From the NCBI GenBank assembly GCA_017448985.1, contig JAFSKL010000010.1, forward strand, positions 20,250 to 84,249: 64,000 nucleotides of DNA. The letters run 5' to 3'. Under the pieces are notes generated by a model that saw only the letters and a program-made list of their open reading frames with translations, did no database searches and was not told where the DNA came from. Origin of the DNA: Paludibacteraceae bacterium (GTDB lineage: Bacteria > Bacteroidota > Bacteroidia > Bacteroidales > Paludibacteraceae). Shown here one piece after another: positions 19,720 to 50,637 of this stretch. The position numbers and the translations under genes are program-made. Every line of letters starts with the position of its first letter. Positions within the stretch are counted from its first letter, which is position 1.

Positions 19720-21100
19720 TTTTAGTTATCTCGGGCACGAGGCGGTCGATGTCGCCGGCGCCTACAGTCAGTATGACCACGGGCTGCTGACTAAGCGCTA
19801 TGCGTCTCTTCAGCTCCGGCACCAGGTCCTGCTTCTCCACTAATTTCCCATTGTCCATTGTCCATTGTCCATTCGCAAGCAGTATCTCGCTGGTGACACC
19901 CGGTATCGGCTCTTCCCGCGCCGGATAGATAGGCAGCAAGAGGCACTCGTCCAGCGTTGCCAACACACGCGTGAATCCTTCTTTGAAGTCGCGTGTACGC
20001 GTGTAGAGGTGTGGTTGGAAGACTCCTATCAGTCGTCGTTCGGGGAACAGCTTGCGGATCGAATCGATGGCCGTGGCTATCTCTTGCGGGTGATGGGCAT
20101 AATCGTCTATGTACACGATCTTCGGCGTGTGCACATGGATGTTAAACCGGCGCTGGACACCCTTAAAAGTTGAGAGTTGAGAGTTGAAAGTGGAAAGATT
20201 CTTTCCCACCAGATAAGCCACCGCCATGGCTGCCACTGCATTCTCTATGTTCACCCATACGGGCACGCCGAGACGGATGTCTTTCACCGTCTCACGCGGT
20301 GTGACGAAGTCAAACACAATCGTTCCTTCACCCACCCGGATGTTCGTGGCATAGAAATCCGGGCCATTTTCCATTTTCCCTTGTCCATTGTCCATTCCGT
20401 AAGTATAGCACTTCACTCCCGGCTGCAGCCTGGGCACCAGCGCAATGCCGTGCTTCATCACCAGCGCACCGGTGATGAGACTCGTATAATGGGCAAACGC
20501 TTCGCGATAGGCTTCCGGCGTGCCGTAGATATCCAAATGGTCTGGATCGACGGCCGTGACCACGGAGATATACGGTGTCAGCTGATGGAACGAGCGGTCG
20601 TACTCGTCGGCCTCCACCACCACAAACGGACTCTCAGGCTCAATGAGCACATTCGTGCCGTAGTTCATGCTGATGCCGCCGAGGAACGCGTTGACGGGCT
20701 GCAACAGATGAGCAATCATCGTGCTCGTCGTTGTCTTGCCGTGTGTCCCCGCCACGCAGAGCGCCTGCTTCCGGCGAGTCACATCACCCAACACCTCGGC
20801 ACGCTTCTTGATCTGAAATCCGTGCTCGCGAAAATACCGATACAAAAGACTATCCTCCGGCACAGCCGGTGTACGGACCACAAGCGTATTGTCTGAATGA
20901 AAAATGGACAATGGACAATGGAAAATGGAGGGATCGTCCTCATAGGTGATCTCAATGCCCTCCGCCTCCAGCTCCCCGGTCAGTTCCGACGGCGTGCGGT
21001 CATAACCCGACACATGATAGCCCTGACGCTGAAAATACCGCGCCAAGGCACTCATTCCGATGCCACCGATGCCCAAGAAAAAGATATTTTTCGCCTTCAT
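19700..21100 (-). CDS. murC: UDP-N-acetylmuramate--L-alanine ligase
   Basis: MKAKNIFFLGIGGIGMSALA and GTHGKTTTSTM motifs. Start set at ATG 21100 because the -7 box (21116-21123) lies in the longer ORF. Carries four in-frame heptamer arrays. Confidence 0.92.
   Translation of the reverse strand: MKAKNIFFLGIGGIGMSALARYFQRQGYHVSGYDRTPSELTGELEAEGIEITYEDDPSIFHCPLSIFHSDNTLVVRTPAVPEDSLLYRYFREHGFQIKKRAEVLGDVTRRKQALCVAGTHGKTTTSTMIAHLLQPVNAFLGGISMNYGTNVLIEPESPFVVVEADEYDRSFHQLTPYISVVTAVDPDHLDIYGTPEAYREAFAHYTSLITGALVMKHGIALVPRLQPGVKCYTYGMDNGQGKMENGPDFYATNIRVGEGTIVFDFVTPRETVKDIRLGVPVWVNIENAVAAMAVAYLVGKNLSTFNSQLSTFKGVQRRFNIHVHTPKIVYIDDYAHHPQEIATAIDSIRKLFPERRLIGVFQPHLYTRTRDFKEGFTRVLATLDECLLLPIYPAREEPIPGVTSEILLANGQWTMDNGKLVEKQDLVPELKRRIALSQQPVVILTVGAGDIDRLVPEITKSLNAEY
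19844..19871. repeat. Heptamer array x4 inside murC
   Basis: TTTCCCA TTGTCCA TTGTCCA TTGTCCA. Encodes NGQWTMDNGK. Confidence 0.9.
20169..20196. repeat. Heptamer array x4 inside murC
   Basis: GTTGAGA GTTGAGA GTTGAAA GTGGAAA. Encodes LSTFNSQLST. Confidence 0.9.
20366..20397. repeat. Heptamer array x4-5 inside murC
   Basis: ATTTTCC ATTTTCC CTTGTCC ATTGTCC ATTCC. Encodes MDNGQGKMENG. Confidence 0.9.
20899..20926. repeat. Heptamer array x4 inside murC, opposite orientation
   Basis: GAAAAAT GGACAAT GGACAAT GGAAAAT. Encodes FHCPLSIFH on the minus strand. Confidence 0.9.
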
Positions 21101-23717: not shown

Positions 23718-24664
23718 ATCTGCTCTTTAATCAAGTAGTCGTTGCGGGAAGGCGAGTTGCGGATCACTATCTCTGCCAGGAATCCGGCGAGGAACAGCAT
23801 GCAGCCGAGTATCATCATCAAGATGGCGATATGGAAATACGGATTCACGCCCACGAGCATGGCCGGCACATGATTCGACAGCGCATAGAGCTTCATGCTC
23901 CCGACCACTATCACCGCCACCAATCCGATGAAGAACATCAGGCTGCCGACGAGCCCGAAGAAGTGCATCGGCTGTTTACCAAACTTGTTCAGAAACCACA
24001 GCGTCAGCAGGTCGAGATAGCCGTTCACGAAACGGTTGAGACCGAACTTCGAGCTACCGAATTCGCGCTTGCGGTGCTGCACCACTTTCTCCCCAATTTT
24101 GGTGAAACCGGCATTCTTGGCCAGGTACGGTATATACCGGTGCATCTCGCTGAACACCTCTATGTTCTTCACCACCTCATTGCGGTATGCTTTGAGACCG
24201 CAGTTCATGTCGTGCAGCCGGATGCCTGTCACGCGGCGGGCTGTAGCGTTGAACAGCTTCGACGGCAGGTTCTTGGTCAGCGCATTGTCATAGCGTTTCT
24301 GCTTCCAACCGCTGACCAGGTCGAAGCCTTCCTCCGTGATCATGCGGTACAGCTCGGGTATCTCGTCCGGACTGTCCTGCAGGTCGGCATCCATCGTGAT
24401 CACCACATCGCCTTGCGCCGCCTGAAAACCGCAGTGCAAGGCCGCACTCTTGCCGTAGTTCCGCCTAAAGCAGATTCCGTGTACAAGACCGCCTTCGGCT
24501 GTTAGACTTTTGATCACCTCCCACGAATTGTCGTTCGAGCCGTCATTGACAAAAATGACCTCATAGGAGAACTTGTTCTCCTTCATCACGCGCGCTATCC
24601 ACTCGTAGAGCTTCGGCAGCGACTCCGCCTCGTTATACAGCGGCACTATAACTGAAATATCCAT
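23714..24664 (-). CDS. Family 2 glycosyltransferase (polyprenyl-phosphate sugar transferase, ArnC/DPM1-like)
   Basis: ISVIVPLYNE, VNDGSNDNS and MDADLQD motifs, plus two C-terminal TM helices. Confidence 0.85.
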   Translation of the reverse strand: MDISVIVPLYNEAESLPKLYEWIARVMKENKFSYEVIFVNDGSNDNSWEVIKSLTAEGGLVHGICFRRNYGKSAALHCGFQAAQGDVVITMDADLQDSPDEIPELYRMITEEGFDLVSGWKQKRYDNALTKNLPSKLFNATARRVTGIRLHDMNCGLKAYRNEVVKNIEVFSEMHRYIPYLAKNAGFTKIGEKVVQHRKREFGSSKFGLNRFVNGYLDLLTLWFLNKFGKQPMHFFGLVGSLMFFIGLVAVIVVGSMKLYALSNHVPAMLVGVNPYFHIAILMMILGCMLFLAGFLAEIVIRNSPSRNDYLIKEQI

Positions 24665-24734
24665 CCGTAAAAAGAATAAGTAACTTTTTCACTGTATCTT
24701 GCTGTTTAAATGATTATTCACACAAATTTGGGCG

Positions 24735-24766
24735 CAAAGGTACAAAAATTTTCTCATATACGCAAG
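24735..24766 (-). promoter_or_regulatory. Promoter of the GT2/TPR operon
   Basis: Minus strand: CTTG, 20 nt spacer, TACCTTTG. About 50 nt are similar to the gmd promoter. Confidence 0.6.
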
Positions 24767-24800
24767 TGTGCGCGCATTTTTTTGAGAAAATGTGTCAAAA

Positions 24801-24832
24801 ATTTGCATATATGCAAAATTTGTTGTAACTTT
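24801..24832 (+). promoter_or_regulatory. waaA promoter
   Basis: TTTGCATATATGCAAA, then TAACTTTG after a 20-nt spacer. Confidence 0.65.
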
Positions 24833-24866
24833 GCACGCTTTTTGTTGGAAACAAAAAATCGGGAGC

Positions 24867-26156
24867 ATGTTTTTGTATTTTCTATTGATACGAATCGCGG
24901 CGCTGTTCGGGCACAAGAAAGCCCGTGCGTTGGTGGAAGGCCAGAAGTCAGCATTCAGCTTTGAGCCGTCAGTATTCAGCGGCTGCATATGGATTCATGC
25001 GGCTTCGGCAGGCGAGTTCGAGCAGTCGAGGACGCTGATTGAGAGGATAAAGGACGCTTCGCTACAGGACGGCGCAAGCGCCTACAAAGAAAAGGTTGTT
25101 GTCACATTCTTTAGTCCGTCGGGATACAAGGCACATAAGGGGAACGAATTGTTGGACGGCGTGCTGTACCTGCCCTTTGCCACGCGGCGCAATGCGCGCA
25201 AGTTCATCGAGGCCCTGCAACCGAAAATGGCCATCTTCGTCAAATACGAGTTCTGGCCCGCCTATATACGCGAACTGAAGAAACGCGATATCCCCATTTA
25301 CAGCATCTCGGCTATCTTCCGTCCGAAGCAGTATTTCTTCCGGTGGTGGGGCAAAGGTCAACTGCGCATACTGCGTGCTTTCACGCATATCTTCGTGCAG
25401 GACGAGGCCTCGCGACGGCTGTTGGCGGAGCACGGCGTGCATAACGCAAGCGTGGCAGGAGACACGCGATTTGACAGAGTCAAACAGACCGCTTGCGCTG
25501 TAAGACCGGCTTCGCCTGTAGGATTGCAGCCCATAGCAGAGTTTGCGGAAGGGTGCAAGAGGGTGTTGGTGGCAGGAAGCACATGGCCGGAGGATGAGGC
25601 GCTATTAGCGCAATTAAAAATTAAAAATGAAGAATTAAAAATTATTCTTGTGCCGCACGAGATAAACGAGGCACATCTGCATTTCATTTTCAATCTGTTC
25701 AAGGGACGGATGGTGAAGTACAGTTCAATTGAAAATGGACAAAGGAAAATGGAAAATGGGATTGTTAGCCGGCGGAACATACTGCGGCACGCGGAGGTGA
25801 TGGTGGTGGATACGATCGGTCTGTTGAGTTCGATCTATCAGTTCGGGCAGGTGGCTTATGTAGGCGGCGGCTTCGGCGAAGGGATTCACAACACCATCGA
25901 AGCGGCGGTGTATGGTGTGCCGGTGATTTTCGGGCCTAACTACCAACGATTTCGCGAGGCACAAGGACTGATTGATGCCGGTGCAGGCAAGAGCGTGCGC
26001 AAATACAATGAGTTTGAAGAGGCGGTGGAGACAGCTTTTGCGCAGCATGAAGACTTAGGCGCCAAAGCGGCGGAGTATGTGGAGAGCGAGTTGGGAGCGA
26101 CTGCAAAAATCTGCGAGCAGATTTTTGCAAATGGAAAATGGAAAATGGAAAATTGA
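24867..26156 (+). CDS. waaA: 3-deoxy-D-manno-octulosonic acid (Kdo) transferase
   Basis: IWIHAASAGEFEQSRTLIERI and a C-terminal GGGFGEGIHNTIEAAVYGVPVIFGP motif. Start set downstream of promoter 24801-24832. Three heptamer arrays, the last of which provides the C-terminus and stop. Confidence 0.85.
   Translation: MFLYFLLIRIAALFGHKKARALVEGQKSAFSFEPSVFSGCIWIHAASAGEFEQSRTLIERIKDASLQDGASAYKEKVVVTFFSPSGYKAHKGNELLDGVLYLPFATRRNARKFIEALQPKMAIFVKYEFWPAYIRELKKRDIPIYSISAIFRPKQYFFRWWGKGQLRILRAFTHIFVQDEASRRLLAEHGVHNASVAGDTRFDRVKQTACAVRPASPVGLQPIAEFAEGCKRVLVAGSTWPEDEALLAQLKIKNEELKIILVPHEINEAHLHFIFNLFKGRMVKYSSIENGQRKMENGIVSRRNILRHAEVMVVDTIGLLSSIYQFGQVAYVGGGFGEGIHNTIEAAVYGVPVIFGPNYQRFREAQGLIDAGAGKSVRKYNEFEEAVETAFAQHEDLGAKAAEYVESELGATAKICEQIFANGKWKMEN
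25612..25646. repeat. Heptamer array x5 inside waaA
   Basis: AATTAAA AATTAAA AATGAAG AATTAAA AATTATT. Encodes LKIKNEELKII. Confidence 0.9.
25723..25760. repeat. Heptamer array x4-5 inside waaA
   Basis: TGAAAAT GGACAAA GGAAAAT GGAAAAT GGG. Encodes IENGQRKMENG. Confidence 0.85.
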
Positions 26157-26175
26157 AAATTGAAAATTTAGAATT
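26126..26175. repeat. Heptamer array x7 forming the waaA C-terminus, its stop and the whole waaA-hisS spacer
   Basis: GGAAAAT x3, TGAAAAT x2, TTAGAAT. The stop TGA arises at the first TGAAAAT unit. The hisS ATG follows 1 nt after the array. Confidence 0.95.
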
Positions 26176-27495
26176 ATGGCACAGAAACCAAGTATACCCA
26201 AAGGGACGCGCGATTTCGGGCAAGTGGAAATGGCTCGGCGCAATTATATCTTTGACACCATCAAAGGGGTGTTTCAGTTGTACGGCTTTCAGCAGATCGA
26301 GACGCCTGCGATGGAGAACCTGAGCACGCTGATGGGCAAGTACGGCGAGGAAGGCGACAAGTTACTTTTCCGTATCCAGAACAGCGGCGAGAAAGCGAAC
26401 CTGACGCCGGAGAAAGGTCTGCGTTATGACCTGACCGTTCCGTTTGCGCGCTATGTGGTGCAGCACCGCGAGGAGATCAGTTTTCCCTTCAAGCGCTTCC
26501 AGATTCAGCCCGTTTGGCGTGCCGACCGACCGCAGAAAGGCCGTTACCGCGAATTCTACCAGTGCGATGTGGATGTGATCGGTTCCAATTCGCTGGTCGG
26601 AGAGTTGGAGCTGGTGCAGATAGTAGAGGAGGTGTACCGCCGTTTGGGCATCAATGTGTGTCTGCACATCAACAATCGCAAGATTTTAGCAGGTATAGCC
26701 GAAGTGATCGGTGAGCCCGACAAGATCATCGACATCACCGTAGCCATCGACAAACTGGACAAGATAGGCGTCGATGCCGTGAATGCGGAATTGGCGGAAC
26801 GGGGACTGAGCGAGAAAGCTACTGAGGCACTGCAGCCGATATTGAATCAGGAGTCAGGAATCAAGATTCAAGACAAAATAGTTCAATTGAAGTCGTTCTT
26901 GGCGACGAGCGAAGTGGGACTGAAAGGCATTGAGGAACTGGAGACCTTGTTCGGACTGATAGAGGCGACAAGTGTGAAGTTGAACATTGAATTGGACCTG
27001 TGCCTTGCGCGCGGACTCAATTATTACACGGGCGCGATATTCGAGGTCAAGGCCTTGGACGCACAGATCGGTTCGATCACCGGTGGCGGTCGTTACGACA
27101 ACTTGACGGGTATCTTCGGCTTGCCGGAAGTGTCGGGCGTCGGCATCTCGTTCGGTGCTGACCGCATCTACGATGTGCTGACCGAGTTGGACCTGTTCCC
27201 CAAAGAGCTGCAATCGGCCACACAAGTGCTCTTTGCCGCGTTCGGACAGGACGAGTTGCACTATGCGCTGCGTTGGGCCAACGGGCTGCGGGCAGCAGGG
27301 ATAGCCGTGGAGGTCTATCCCGAAGCGACGAAGATGAAGAAGCAGATGGGTTATGCCGACGCCAAGCAGATTCCGTTCGTGGCCATCGTAGGCGGCGACG
27401 AGATGGCGCAAGGCAAAGTGATGCTCAAAAATATGAGTTCCGGCGAACAAAAACTCGTCGGACCCGACGAACTGATAGAAATGGCAAAATCTTAA
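26176..27495 (+). CDS. hisS: Histidine--tRNA ligase
   Basis: [15 protein letters not shown]..., [25 protein letters not shown] and GGGRYDNL class II motifs. In-frame heptamer array at 26844-26885. Confidence 0.95.
26844..26885. repeat. Degenerate heptamer array x6 inside hisS
   Basis: GAATCAG GAGTCAG GAATCAA GATTCAA GACAAAA TAGTTCA. Encodes [13 protein letters not shown]. Confidence 0.8.
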
Positions 27496-27604
27496 TAATC
27501 GTACATTTTTTCAGGTAGCCTTTAACCACGGTTTACCCACGGTTTAACCACGGTATTACCCCTTGTAGTGCATAGAGGGGCAAAATCTTAAAAATAGTAA
27601 ACTT
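27487..27604 (+). repeat. ~118-bp dispersed intergenic element, copy A (hisS / DUF1599 spacer)
   Basis: Shares three blocks with the reverse complement of 50521-50637: 24/24, about 45/45 and 25/25 identical nt, separated by two short divergent patches. Contains the 11-mer array TTAACCACGGT TTACCCACGGT TTAACCACGGT (27522-27554). Confidence 0.9.
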
Positions 27605-29354: not shown

Positions 29355-30107
29355 ATGGCAAGAATTAAAATGGTGGCAGGTAACTGGAAAATGAACAAGA
29401 ACCTGCAGGAAGGTGTAGCATTGGCTACCGAGTTGAAAGAGGCTGTGAAAGCCCCGAAGTGTGCCGTTGTTATCGGTACTCCTTTTATCCACTTGGCTAC
29501 CGTAGCCGAGTTGCTCAAAGGCTCGCCGATTAAGGTGGCGGCTGAGAACTGCGCGGACCACGAGAAAGGTGCGTACACCGGTGAGGTGAGTGCCGAGATG
29601 GTGAAATCGACCGGCGCCGAGTACGTCATCTTGGGTCACTCGGAGCGTCGTCAATACTACGCCGAGAGCTACGAGATGCTGGCTCAGAAAGTGCGTCTGG
29701 CTTTGGCTAACGGGCTGAAGGTGATTTTCTGCATCGGCGAGGTGAAAGAGGAGCGCGAGGCTGGTCGTCAGAACGAAGTGGTGAAAGCCCAACTCGAAGG
29801 TTCGGTCTTCGGTCTGAGCGCCGATGAGTGGAAGCAGATCGTGCTGGCTTACGAACCCGTTTGGGCAATCGGTACAGGTCTGACCGCTACGCCGGAGCAG
29901 GCACAGGAGATACACGCGTTCATCCGTTCGCTCGTGGCTGAGAAATTCGGCAAAGAGGCAGCGGAGGACACCACTATTCTCTACGGCGGCAGCTGCAACG
30001 AGAAGAACGCAGCCGAACTGTTCGCTTGTCCGGACATCGACGGCGGCCTGATCGGTGGTGCCGCACTCGTGGCAGAGAAGTTCTTAGCTATCATCGCTGC
30101 GCGATAA
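29355..30107 (+). CDS. tpiA: Triosephosphate isomerase
   Basis: [27 protein letters not shown] and YGGS motifs. Confidence 0.97.
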
Positions 30108-30145
30108 CTAGTCTACTAGTCAACTAGTCTACTAGTCAACTAGAA
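30106..30145. repeat. 8-mer array x5 after tpiA
   Basis: AACTAGTC TACTAGTC AACTAGTC TACTAGTC AACTAGAA. ACTAGT palindromes recur every 8 nt. Confidence 0.9.
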
Positions 30146-34076: not shown

Positions 34077-34116
34077 ACTAGTTGACTAGCGGACTAGTTG
34101 ACTAGCCGACTAAAGA
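34077..34116. repeat. 8-mer array x5 in the korA-korB spacer and korA 3' end
   Basis: ACTAGTTG ACTAGCGG ACTAGTTG ACTAGCCG ACTAAAGA. Same ACTAG core as 30106-30145. Confidence 0.9.
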
Positions 34117-50520: not shown

Positions 50521-50637
50521 AAGTTTACTATTTTTAAGATTTTGCCTCTCTAAACGCACAAGGGGTAATACCGTGGTTAAACCGTGGGTAAACCGTGGTT
50601 AAACCGTATGCACAAAAATGTACGATTATTAAGATTT
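50521..50637 (-). repeat. ~118-bp dispersed intergenic element, copy B (serC / serA spacer)
   Basis: Reverse complement matches 27487-27604. It has the same orientation relative to the flanking genes. Confidence 0.9.

Follow-up and report, generated by a model that had tools for sequence, protein, structure and literature searches.

In this study we describe short tandem arrays of 7-nt units in waaA, a gene for a predicted 3-deoxy-D-manno-oct-2-ulosonic acid (Kdo) transferase in an uncultured rumen Paludibacteraceae bacterium. The window, by which we mean the whole stretch of 64,000 nt that was analysed, covers positions 20,250 to 84,249 of contig JAFSKL010000010.1 (assembly GCA_017448985.1), and the source names of near-identical proteins are Paludibacteraceae as well. 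The waaA coding sequence is an open reading frame (ORF) at 24867-26156 that encodes a protein of 429 residues. It lies on the + strand, as do all features of the gene given below. Three period-7 arrays are found in it or at its end: array 1 at 25612-25646, array 2 at 25723-25760, and a 3' array at 26125-26175 that runs from the last codons of waaA up to the start of hisS.

The product is a WaaA-family Kdo transferase, whose predicted function, from sequence and model, is the transfer of Kdo from cytidine monophosphate (CMP)-Kdo to the lipid A precursor. It matches the Kdo transferase N-terminal domain PF04413 (Glycos_transf_N) with 126.7 bits, compared with a Pfam gathering score of 23.9, and PDB entry 2xci, the WaaA of Aquifex aeolicus, was found by sequence. 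We built an AlphaFold2 model from 67 relatives, with a mean predicted local distance difference test score (pLDDT) of 86.5 and a predicted template modelling score (pTM) of 0.84. Its three best Foldseek matches are chains of 2xci (E 2.9e-18), and the alternation of strands and helices in both of its halves would fit a two-Rossmann, glycosyltransferase-B (GT-B) architecture. The motifs W.H.AS.GE, EFWP and GG.F...HN..E align with 2xci, and their residues are invariant in the 67 relatives. The window protein thus resembles the A. aeolicus WaaA/KdtA (PDB 2XCI) as its top fold match and in the N-terminal family domain that both have in common; it differs in sequence (21% identity) and in having a tail of 7 residues and three additional loop segments, residues 64-76, 208-220 and 286-300. 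The NCBIfam equivalog models for lipid IV(A) Kdo transferase aligned over their full length but scored 135.9 bits at best, below the cut-off of 524. Because these scores are below the cut-offs, we name the gene at family level only and leave the number of Kdo residues transferred unclaimed. The gene is present in a single copy in the 2.36-Mb assembly (one match), in which we also found a gene of the cytidylyltransferase family PF02348, a family that is not specific to KdsB. In the core of waaA, outside the variable blocks, the ratio of non-synonymous to synonymous divergence (dN/dS) is 0.10-0.17 against eight relatives, indicating purifying selection. A GTG at 24792 was considered as the true start of a longer ORF and rejected, as the orthologues begin at the position of MFLYFL...

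Tandem Repeats Finder reports repeats of period 7 at 25612-25644 (AATTAAA, 4.7 copies), at 25727-25759 (AATGGAA, 4.7 copies) and at 26125-26168 (6.3 copies). When waaA is compared with itself at a lag of 7 nt, the three arrays score 22/28, 22/28 and 27/28, all of them above the maximum of 20 that was reached in 1000 codon shuffles of waaA. Matches to the two unit families within the window numbered 42 and 20, with 0.66 and 0.42 expected. The three unit types form a series of single steps: AATTAAA, AATTGAA (which equals TGAAAAT) and AATGGAA (which equals GGAAAAT). Interruptions limit the coding arrays to about 2.4 perfect units at most, and their Tandem Repeats Finder match values are 80-84%. 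A search of 24400-26600 against Rfam at a permissive threshold found no family, and neither terminal inverted repeats nor target-site duplications nor element borders flanking the three arrays came up when inverted and direct repeats were sought. The arrays are not classical mobile elements of the miniature inverted-repeat or insertion-sequence type. The initial annotation of this locus, made from the letters of the sequence, had described repeats at these positions in a Kdo transferase gene; the arrays are real, their quoted translations are correct, and the gene assignment is borne out by both domain and fold.

For comparison we used 30 genome-derived orthologues, 120 database relatives and the DNA of ten metagenomic relatives. 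Array 1 reads AATTAAA AATTAAA AATGAAG AATTAAA AATTATT and encodes residues 250-260 (LKIKNEELKII), which form the last turn of helix 241-253, a loop of three residues and the start of strand 257-263, modelled with a pLDDT of 93-94. The distance from the conserved DE to (L/V)VPHE is 16 residues in the window protein and likewise 16 in the array-free orthologues L004, L007, L008, L010, L019 and L020. Given this equal spacing, array 1 replaces 11 codons and adds no length. At this place (site 1), relatives of 60-87% identity have repeats of other kinds, namely GTCATTT x4, AAGATTG x5, GACATTG x4, an 8-mer or CACAGAN, with 5-10 additional residues, and among 65 relatives we found 59 distinct site-1 sequences that range from 12 to 38 residues. 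The site-1 arrays of several lineages (GTCATTG, GACATTG, AAGATTG) end in ATTG, as does the ancestral TACATTG that flanks the site. Array 1 is identical at 28/28 nt in the window and L035, despite a synonymous divergence (dS) of 0.56 between them.

Array 2 (TGAAAAT GGACAAA GGAAAAT GGAAAAT GGGATTG) encodes residues 286-300, SSIENGQRKMENGIV. Compared with L004-L008 and L020 it is a loop insertion of 13 residues after strand 282-284, and its pLDDT is 64. At the same codon (site 2), L035 has array 2's own family with the units in another order, and further relatives have TGAGTAN (L037), an 11-mer (L038), GCACAGA x4 (L039), ACACAGA (L040) or ATKACRA (L041). In a tree of core positions the lineages that bear the slot fall into a 15-member clade with support of 99/98, within which the slot is absent only from the pair L004/L005. 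The most economical reading is that the slot arose once and that its contents then turned over. Perfect complementarity exists between the 10 nt at 25685-25694, which lie in the codons of the conserved HFIFN (CATTTTCAAT), and the first 10 nt of array 2 at 25728-25737, 33 nt downstream. This match is about what chance would give in an A/T-rich stretch, or it could be a trace of template switching. In the waaA of L040 (L040:279-1592) one composite of about 40 nt, ACAGACCGTTTCACTGACRGAACACAGA, is found at both site 1 and site 2.

The 3' array consists of GGAAAAT x3, TGAAAAT x2 and TTAGAAT. It supplies the last seven codons of waaA (GKWKMEN), the TGA stop at 26154-26156 and the whole spacer of 19 nt to the hisS ATG at 26176. 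In relatives, WaaA ends with ...IFAN, and the first spacer unit supplies the TGA stop; L037, L038, L040 and L041, for instance, read AAT followed by TGA TAAT TGA... In the window the first three units are GGAAAAT, and the next in-frame TGA is found in unit 4, seven codons on. As 7-nt units regain the frame at every third unit, the tail amounts to exactly three units. The spacer between waaA and hisS is built of repeats in most members of the genus, the units usually carrying a stop triplet. To judge from these sequences, the tail is probably best explained as a stop-codon shift inside a pre-existing waaA-hisS spacer array: the first units of a TGAAAAT array would have changed from T to G, destroying the original stop, and translation would end three units later. 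The period of 7 nt has two consequences here, namely that three tandem copies of a unit with a stop close all three reading frames, and that the loss of one stop lengthens the protein by exactly seven residues. The tail is modelled with a pLDDT below 50. The 3' array has one unit fewer in L036 and L034, and in L036 this takes 7 nt from the spacer behind the stop and leaves the end of the protein as it is. Immediately ahead of the 3' array, in the last conserved codons (AKICEQIFA), lies a perfect inverted repeat of 13 nt at 26102-26129 (minimum free energy -14.9 kcal/mol), and a stem of 10-12 bp is kept in the window's clade. Other hairpins are found at the equivalent place in L002, L003, L007 and L039.

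In twelve relatives of 91-100% identity, array 1, array 2 and the tail do not differ from the window in length, and the changes are point changes only (R/W, M/I, L/F). P0014 (87%) has another site-1 repeat and a shorter tail, and P0015 (83%) has another tail. In strains with a core dS of 0.03-0.13 from the window from one to three out of five short blocks have been replaced as a whole, in mosaic combinations. The five blocks are 24945-24980, two hypervariable blocks termed site 0 and site 3 (25050-25097 and 25487-25530), site 1 and the 3' array; the last of these shows the sole one-unit length change between strains. The initial annotation had regarded the arrays as repeated independent insertions, with ANGKWKMEN added at the C-terminus. 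Relative to array-free orthologues, array 2 does add 13 residues and the tail 7, whereas array 1 is a length-neutral replacement; within the tail, only GKWKMEN comes from the array, because the proteins of relatives already end in ...IFAN. Orthologues sharing these segments as non-repetitive DNA, which had been named as the contrary outcome, were not encountered in the comparison. The picture of independent insertions is nevertheless too simple, as the sites are clade-wide hypervariable slots filled by repeats that differ between lineages, and for the tail the stop-codon shift is the better explanation.

The arrays in waaA have many counterparts in the genome. In the 2.36 Mb we counted 606 period-7 arrays with a score of at least 40, compared with 0 in a control in which the genome's triplets were shuffled within blocks of 900 nt. 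Genes were called for this purpose by a crude, greedy longest-ORF procedure, so that the counts of placement are approximate: a stop codon falls within 110 arrays and a start codon within 74, another 125 are intergenic, and about 240 are placed well within the bounds of about 187 ORFs. Junctions between co-directional genes carry arrays in 226/1205 cases (19%), compared with 7-9% of convergent (19/259) and divergent (21/242) junctions. The length of the arrays has a sharp mode at 32-33 nt, in genic and non-genic arrays alike. There are more than 100 unit types in this genome. GGAAAAT (23 arrays) and AATTAAA (22) are the commonest genic families, nearly all of them in sense orientation, and 76% of genic arrays have their A-rich strand in sense. 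Five of the array-bearing proteins were checked by Pfam: Dxs (three arrays), Fmt, RecF (two arrays), a mannose-1-phosphate guanylyltransferase-like enzyme and GcvT. The arrays are therefore no peculiarity of an envelope gene. Triplets of GGAAAAT occur at 164 places here, compared with 0 in 37/40 congeners, and this family looks like a species-level burst; AATTAAA ranges from 0 to 228 across the genus. A reversed-pattern control is uninformative for AATTAAA, since reversal only rotates this repeat. The GGAAAAT family has its longest genic array (GGAAAAT/GGACAAT, 19.7 copies, 138 nt) at G000 C37:18839-18976, inside an ORF of 383 residues.

Every third unit of a perfect AATTAAA array brings a TAA into frame. 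In all 22 of the 22 genic AATTAAA arrays a variant unit stands exactly at the in-frame TAA. In array 1 of waaA this is the unit AATGAAG, whose T-to-G change turns TAA into GAA; apart from this one change, array 1 has the commonest unit order of non-genic arrays (AATTAAA AATTAAA AATTAAG AATTAAA AATT). The units AATGAAA and AATGAAG make up 18/93 in genic and 1/176 in non-genic arrays, whereas AATTAAG, which keeps the TAA, makes up 1/93 and 48/176. Taking all families together, stop-bearing units account for 30% of genic arrays, compared with 53% elsewhere. The avoidance of in-frame stops indicates that the waaA arrays are translated and under selection.

Our preferred explanation, which we consider probable, is that the waaA arrays are local members of a genome-wide population of short heptamer arrays and are carried as translated passengers, kept harmless by purifying selection. 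Such arrays are concentrated at co-directional junctions and would also have become established, in frame, where many housekeeping proteins tolerate them; in waaA their positions are permissive linkers of the fold. They might arise and turn over by slipped-strand or template-switch copying together with unit-to-unit conversion, a process that could overwrite neighbouring sequence without a change in length. Both the length-neutral overwrites and the shared ATTG ending of site-1 arrays point to unit-by-unit copying or conversion rather than to simple insertion. Recombination between strains might then shuffle the alleles, and selection would filter them for frame, for the absence of stops and for compatible residues. 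Several points weigh against this explanation. We infer the mechanism of origin. A perfect AATTAAA array that entered this frame would create a stop, so that a stepwise route has to be assumed, and the genome-wide counts rest on crude longest-ORF calls, five of which were verified by Pfam. Furthermore, a templated or copy-and-paste mechanism would suit several features better than free slippage does: the uniform length of 32-33 nt, the recurrence of the unit order AATTAAA AATTAAA AATTAAG AATTAAA AATT at many loci, and the near species-specific burst of GGAAAAT.

These last features would be expected if a dedicated copy-and-paste or templated-repair activity wrote preformed heptamer cassettes of about 33 nt, the three arrays of waaA then being separate insertions or overwrites, which comes near to what had been proposed initially. 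Lineage-specific abundance extends to AATTAAA as well as GGAAAAT, and the L040 composite at two sites of one gene and the wholesale replacement of blocks between strains at dS 0.03-0.13 also speak for such an activity. However, terminal inverted repeats or target duplications were not found around the arrays, more than 100 unit types are present in one genome, the site-1 arrays of several lineages end in the flanking ATTG as local birth predicts, and a candidate enzyme was not identified. We regard cassette writing as unlikely. It seems doubtful, too, that a lineage-specific activity writes such cassettes over coding sequence in a length-neutral way and so makes programmed hypervariable sites of housekeeping linkers; if true, it would account for the length mode, for the species-specific bursts and for the block replacement between near-identical strains.

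A selected role of the array peptides in WaaA itself, for example in contacts with the membrane or with partners, appears very improbable to us. It is true that arrays 1 and 2 are kept in relatives down to 83% identity (except in P0014, with its other site-1 repeat) and that array 1 is unchanged in L035, but the same peptides recur in dozens of unrelated enzymes, unrelated sequences occupy the same sites in relatives, and model confidence is low for both array 2 and the tail. Even less can be said for contingency loci, in which slippage by one unit would shift the frame and switch Kdo transfer and the lipopolysaccharide core on and off. Seven is not a multiple of three, waaA acts in envelope biogenesis, and a one-unit change between strains does occur in the 3' array; in L036, however, that change spares the protein end and shortens the spacer after the stop. 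The coding arrays have no long uninterrupted tract, their perfect units numbering about 2.4 at most, no frame-shifting length change was found in the twelve relatives at 91-100% identity, where arrays 1 and 2 keep their length, the gene is single-copy and under purifying selection, and arrays of this kind are found in dxs, fmt, recF and gcvT too. Such switching is thus hardly to be expected. Mis-assembly of short repeats is possible, but an artefact of assembly or sequencing can practically be dismissed, being refuted by identical arrays in independent assemblies from different samples and projects; the reading frame is moreover intact throughout.

Arrays of about four heptanucleotide units have been known from several bacterial genomes since the 1990s-2000s, with neither an accepted origin nor an accepted function. 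The waaA arrays belong to this class of repeats, which includes those of Geobacter (H4), Nostoc and Xanthomonas. With 4.7, 4.7 and 6.3 copies they reach the four to five heptamers of the H4 elements and of the related long simple sequence repeats (LSSRs), and across the genome the arrays likewise are dispersed both between and within genes, prefer co-directional junctions and overlap stops and starts. Heptanucleotide LSSRs in general were treated by Mrazek et al. 2007, as cited in PMC4679880, where a general excess of heptamers is also discussed. The H4 elements of Geobacter metallireducens are four tandem heptanucleotide repeats present in 49 copies (PMC2700814). They resemble our arrays in having about four 7-nt units in tandem, but form one GC-rich family with a proposed regulatory role (PMC2700814), whereas here more than 100 mostly A-rich unit types make up 606 arrays in 2.36 Mb. 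Beyond what is known of H4, our analysis adds evidence of in-frame translation, of stop avoidance and of site-specific turnover. The GGGAATC and GGGGA(C/T)T heptamers of Xanthomonas and Nostoc have a strong bias to about four units (PMC4692102). As in our genome, they favour the spaces that separate co-directional ORFs and the 50 nt surrounding stops and starts, and about a third of the Nostoc repeats are intragenic (PMC4692102). Those repeats are, however, G-rich, quadruplex-forming and under-represented on the coding strand (PMC4692102), in contrast to the sense orientation of the A-rich strand found here.

TAACTGA direct repeats are found in marine Beggiatoaceae, in cyanobacteria and in some Bacteroidetes (PMC4679880). 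They share with our arrays a position just upstream of start codons, and the stop triplets of the unit limit its overlap with coding sequence (PMC4679880). They are a single family and almost entirely intergenic (PMC4679880), whereas here there are many families, and stop-bearing units are tolerated in genes by way of point variants. A further likeness is to Borg elements, in which, as described in PMC9879509, fast-evolving nucleotide tandem repeats are translated into extra, disordered segments of proteins. In contrast to those, the unit here has 7 nt, it is only the block as a whole that has to keep the frame, and one of the arrays forms part of an ordered helix-strand junction. The genic repeats of Borgs are reportedly perfect, with unit lengths divisible by three. 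The gene waaA is a compact and well-controlled case, as it concerns one essential single-copy enzyme with relatives from 100% to 40% identity and shows where arrays are tolerated. It also shows a slot that outlives its repeat, and the exchange of blocks between strains that are a few percent apart at synonymous sites.

Apart from the two arrays and the C-terminus, the gene contains a fourth, degenerate stretch of period 7 that the initial annotation had missed. It lies at 24935-24982, has about five units of TCAGCNT and encodes KSAFSFEPSVFSG. Its lag-7 score of 19/28 was reached in 3/1000 shuffles, and it includes a 13-nt direct repeat at a spacing of 21 nt. Strain L034 has a different allele there, which is 12 nt longer. 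The hypervariable block of site 0, DASLQDGASAYKEK, is non-heptameric in the window strain. It has 26 residues in the window compared with 19 in array-free orthologues, the seven additional ones lying at an ancestral helix-to-strand junction, and pLDDT is below 50 at residues 71-73. In strain L033 (91% identity) and in the distant congener L008 the same site holds a length-neutral AATTAAA array, and in L035, L037 and L002 length-neutral arrays of the GAAAGGT or TAAAGGC type. Site 3, KQTACAVRPASPVG, lies in the inter-domain linker and has a pLDDT of 61. Among strains with a core dS of at most 0.13 it has three alleles: the window type, a type longer by 39 nt (L033, L034) and a period-8 array (L036). 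The +39-nt allele is built of small hairpins spaced by CTGTAAGACC. The motif GACCG(C/T)TTC(G/A)CT, which is present in the L040 composite, recurs at sites 0 and 3 of the window and in inserts that other relatives carry. Arrays with other periods are present in the window as well, namely period 11 (TTTAACCACGG) at 27521-27554 and 50570-50607, and period 8/16 (AACTAGTC) at 30106-30143 and 34077-34112. Together with the 8- and 11-nt units at the waaA sites of relatives, these arrays show that the phenomenon is not strictly heptameric.

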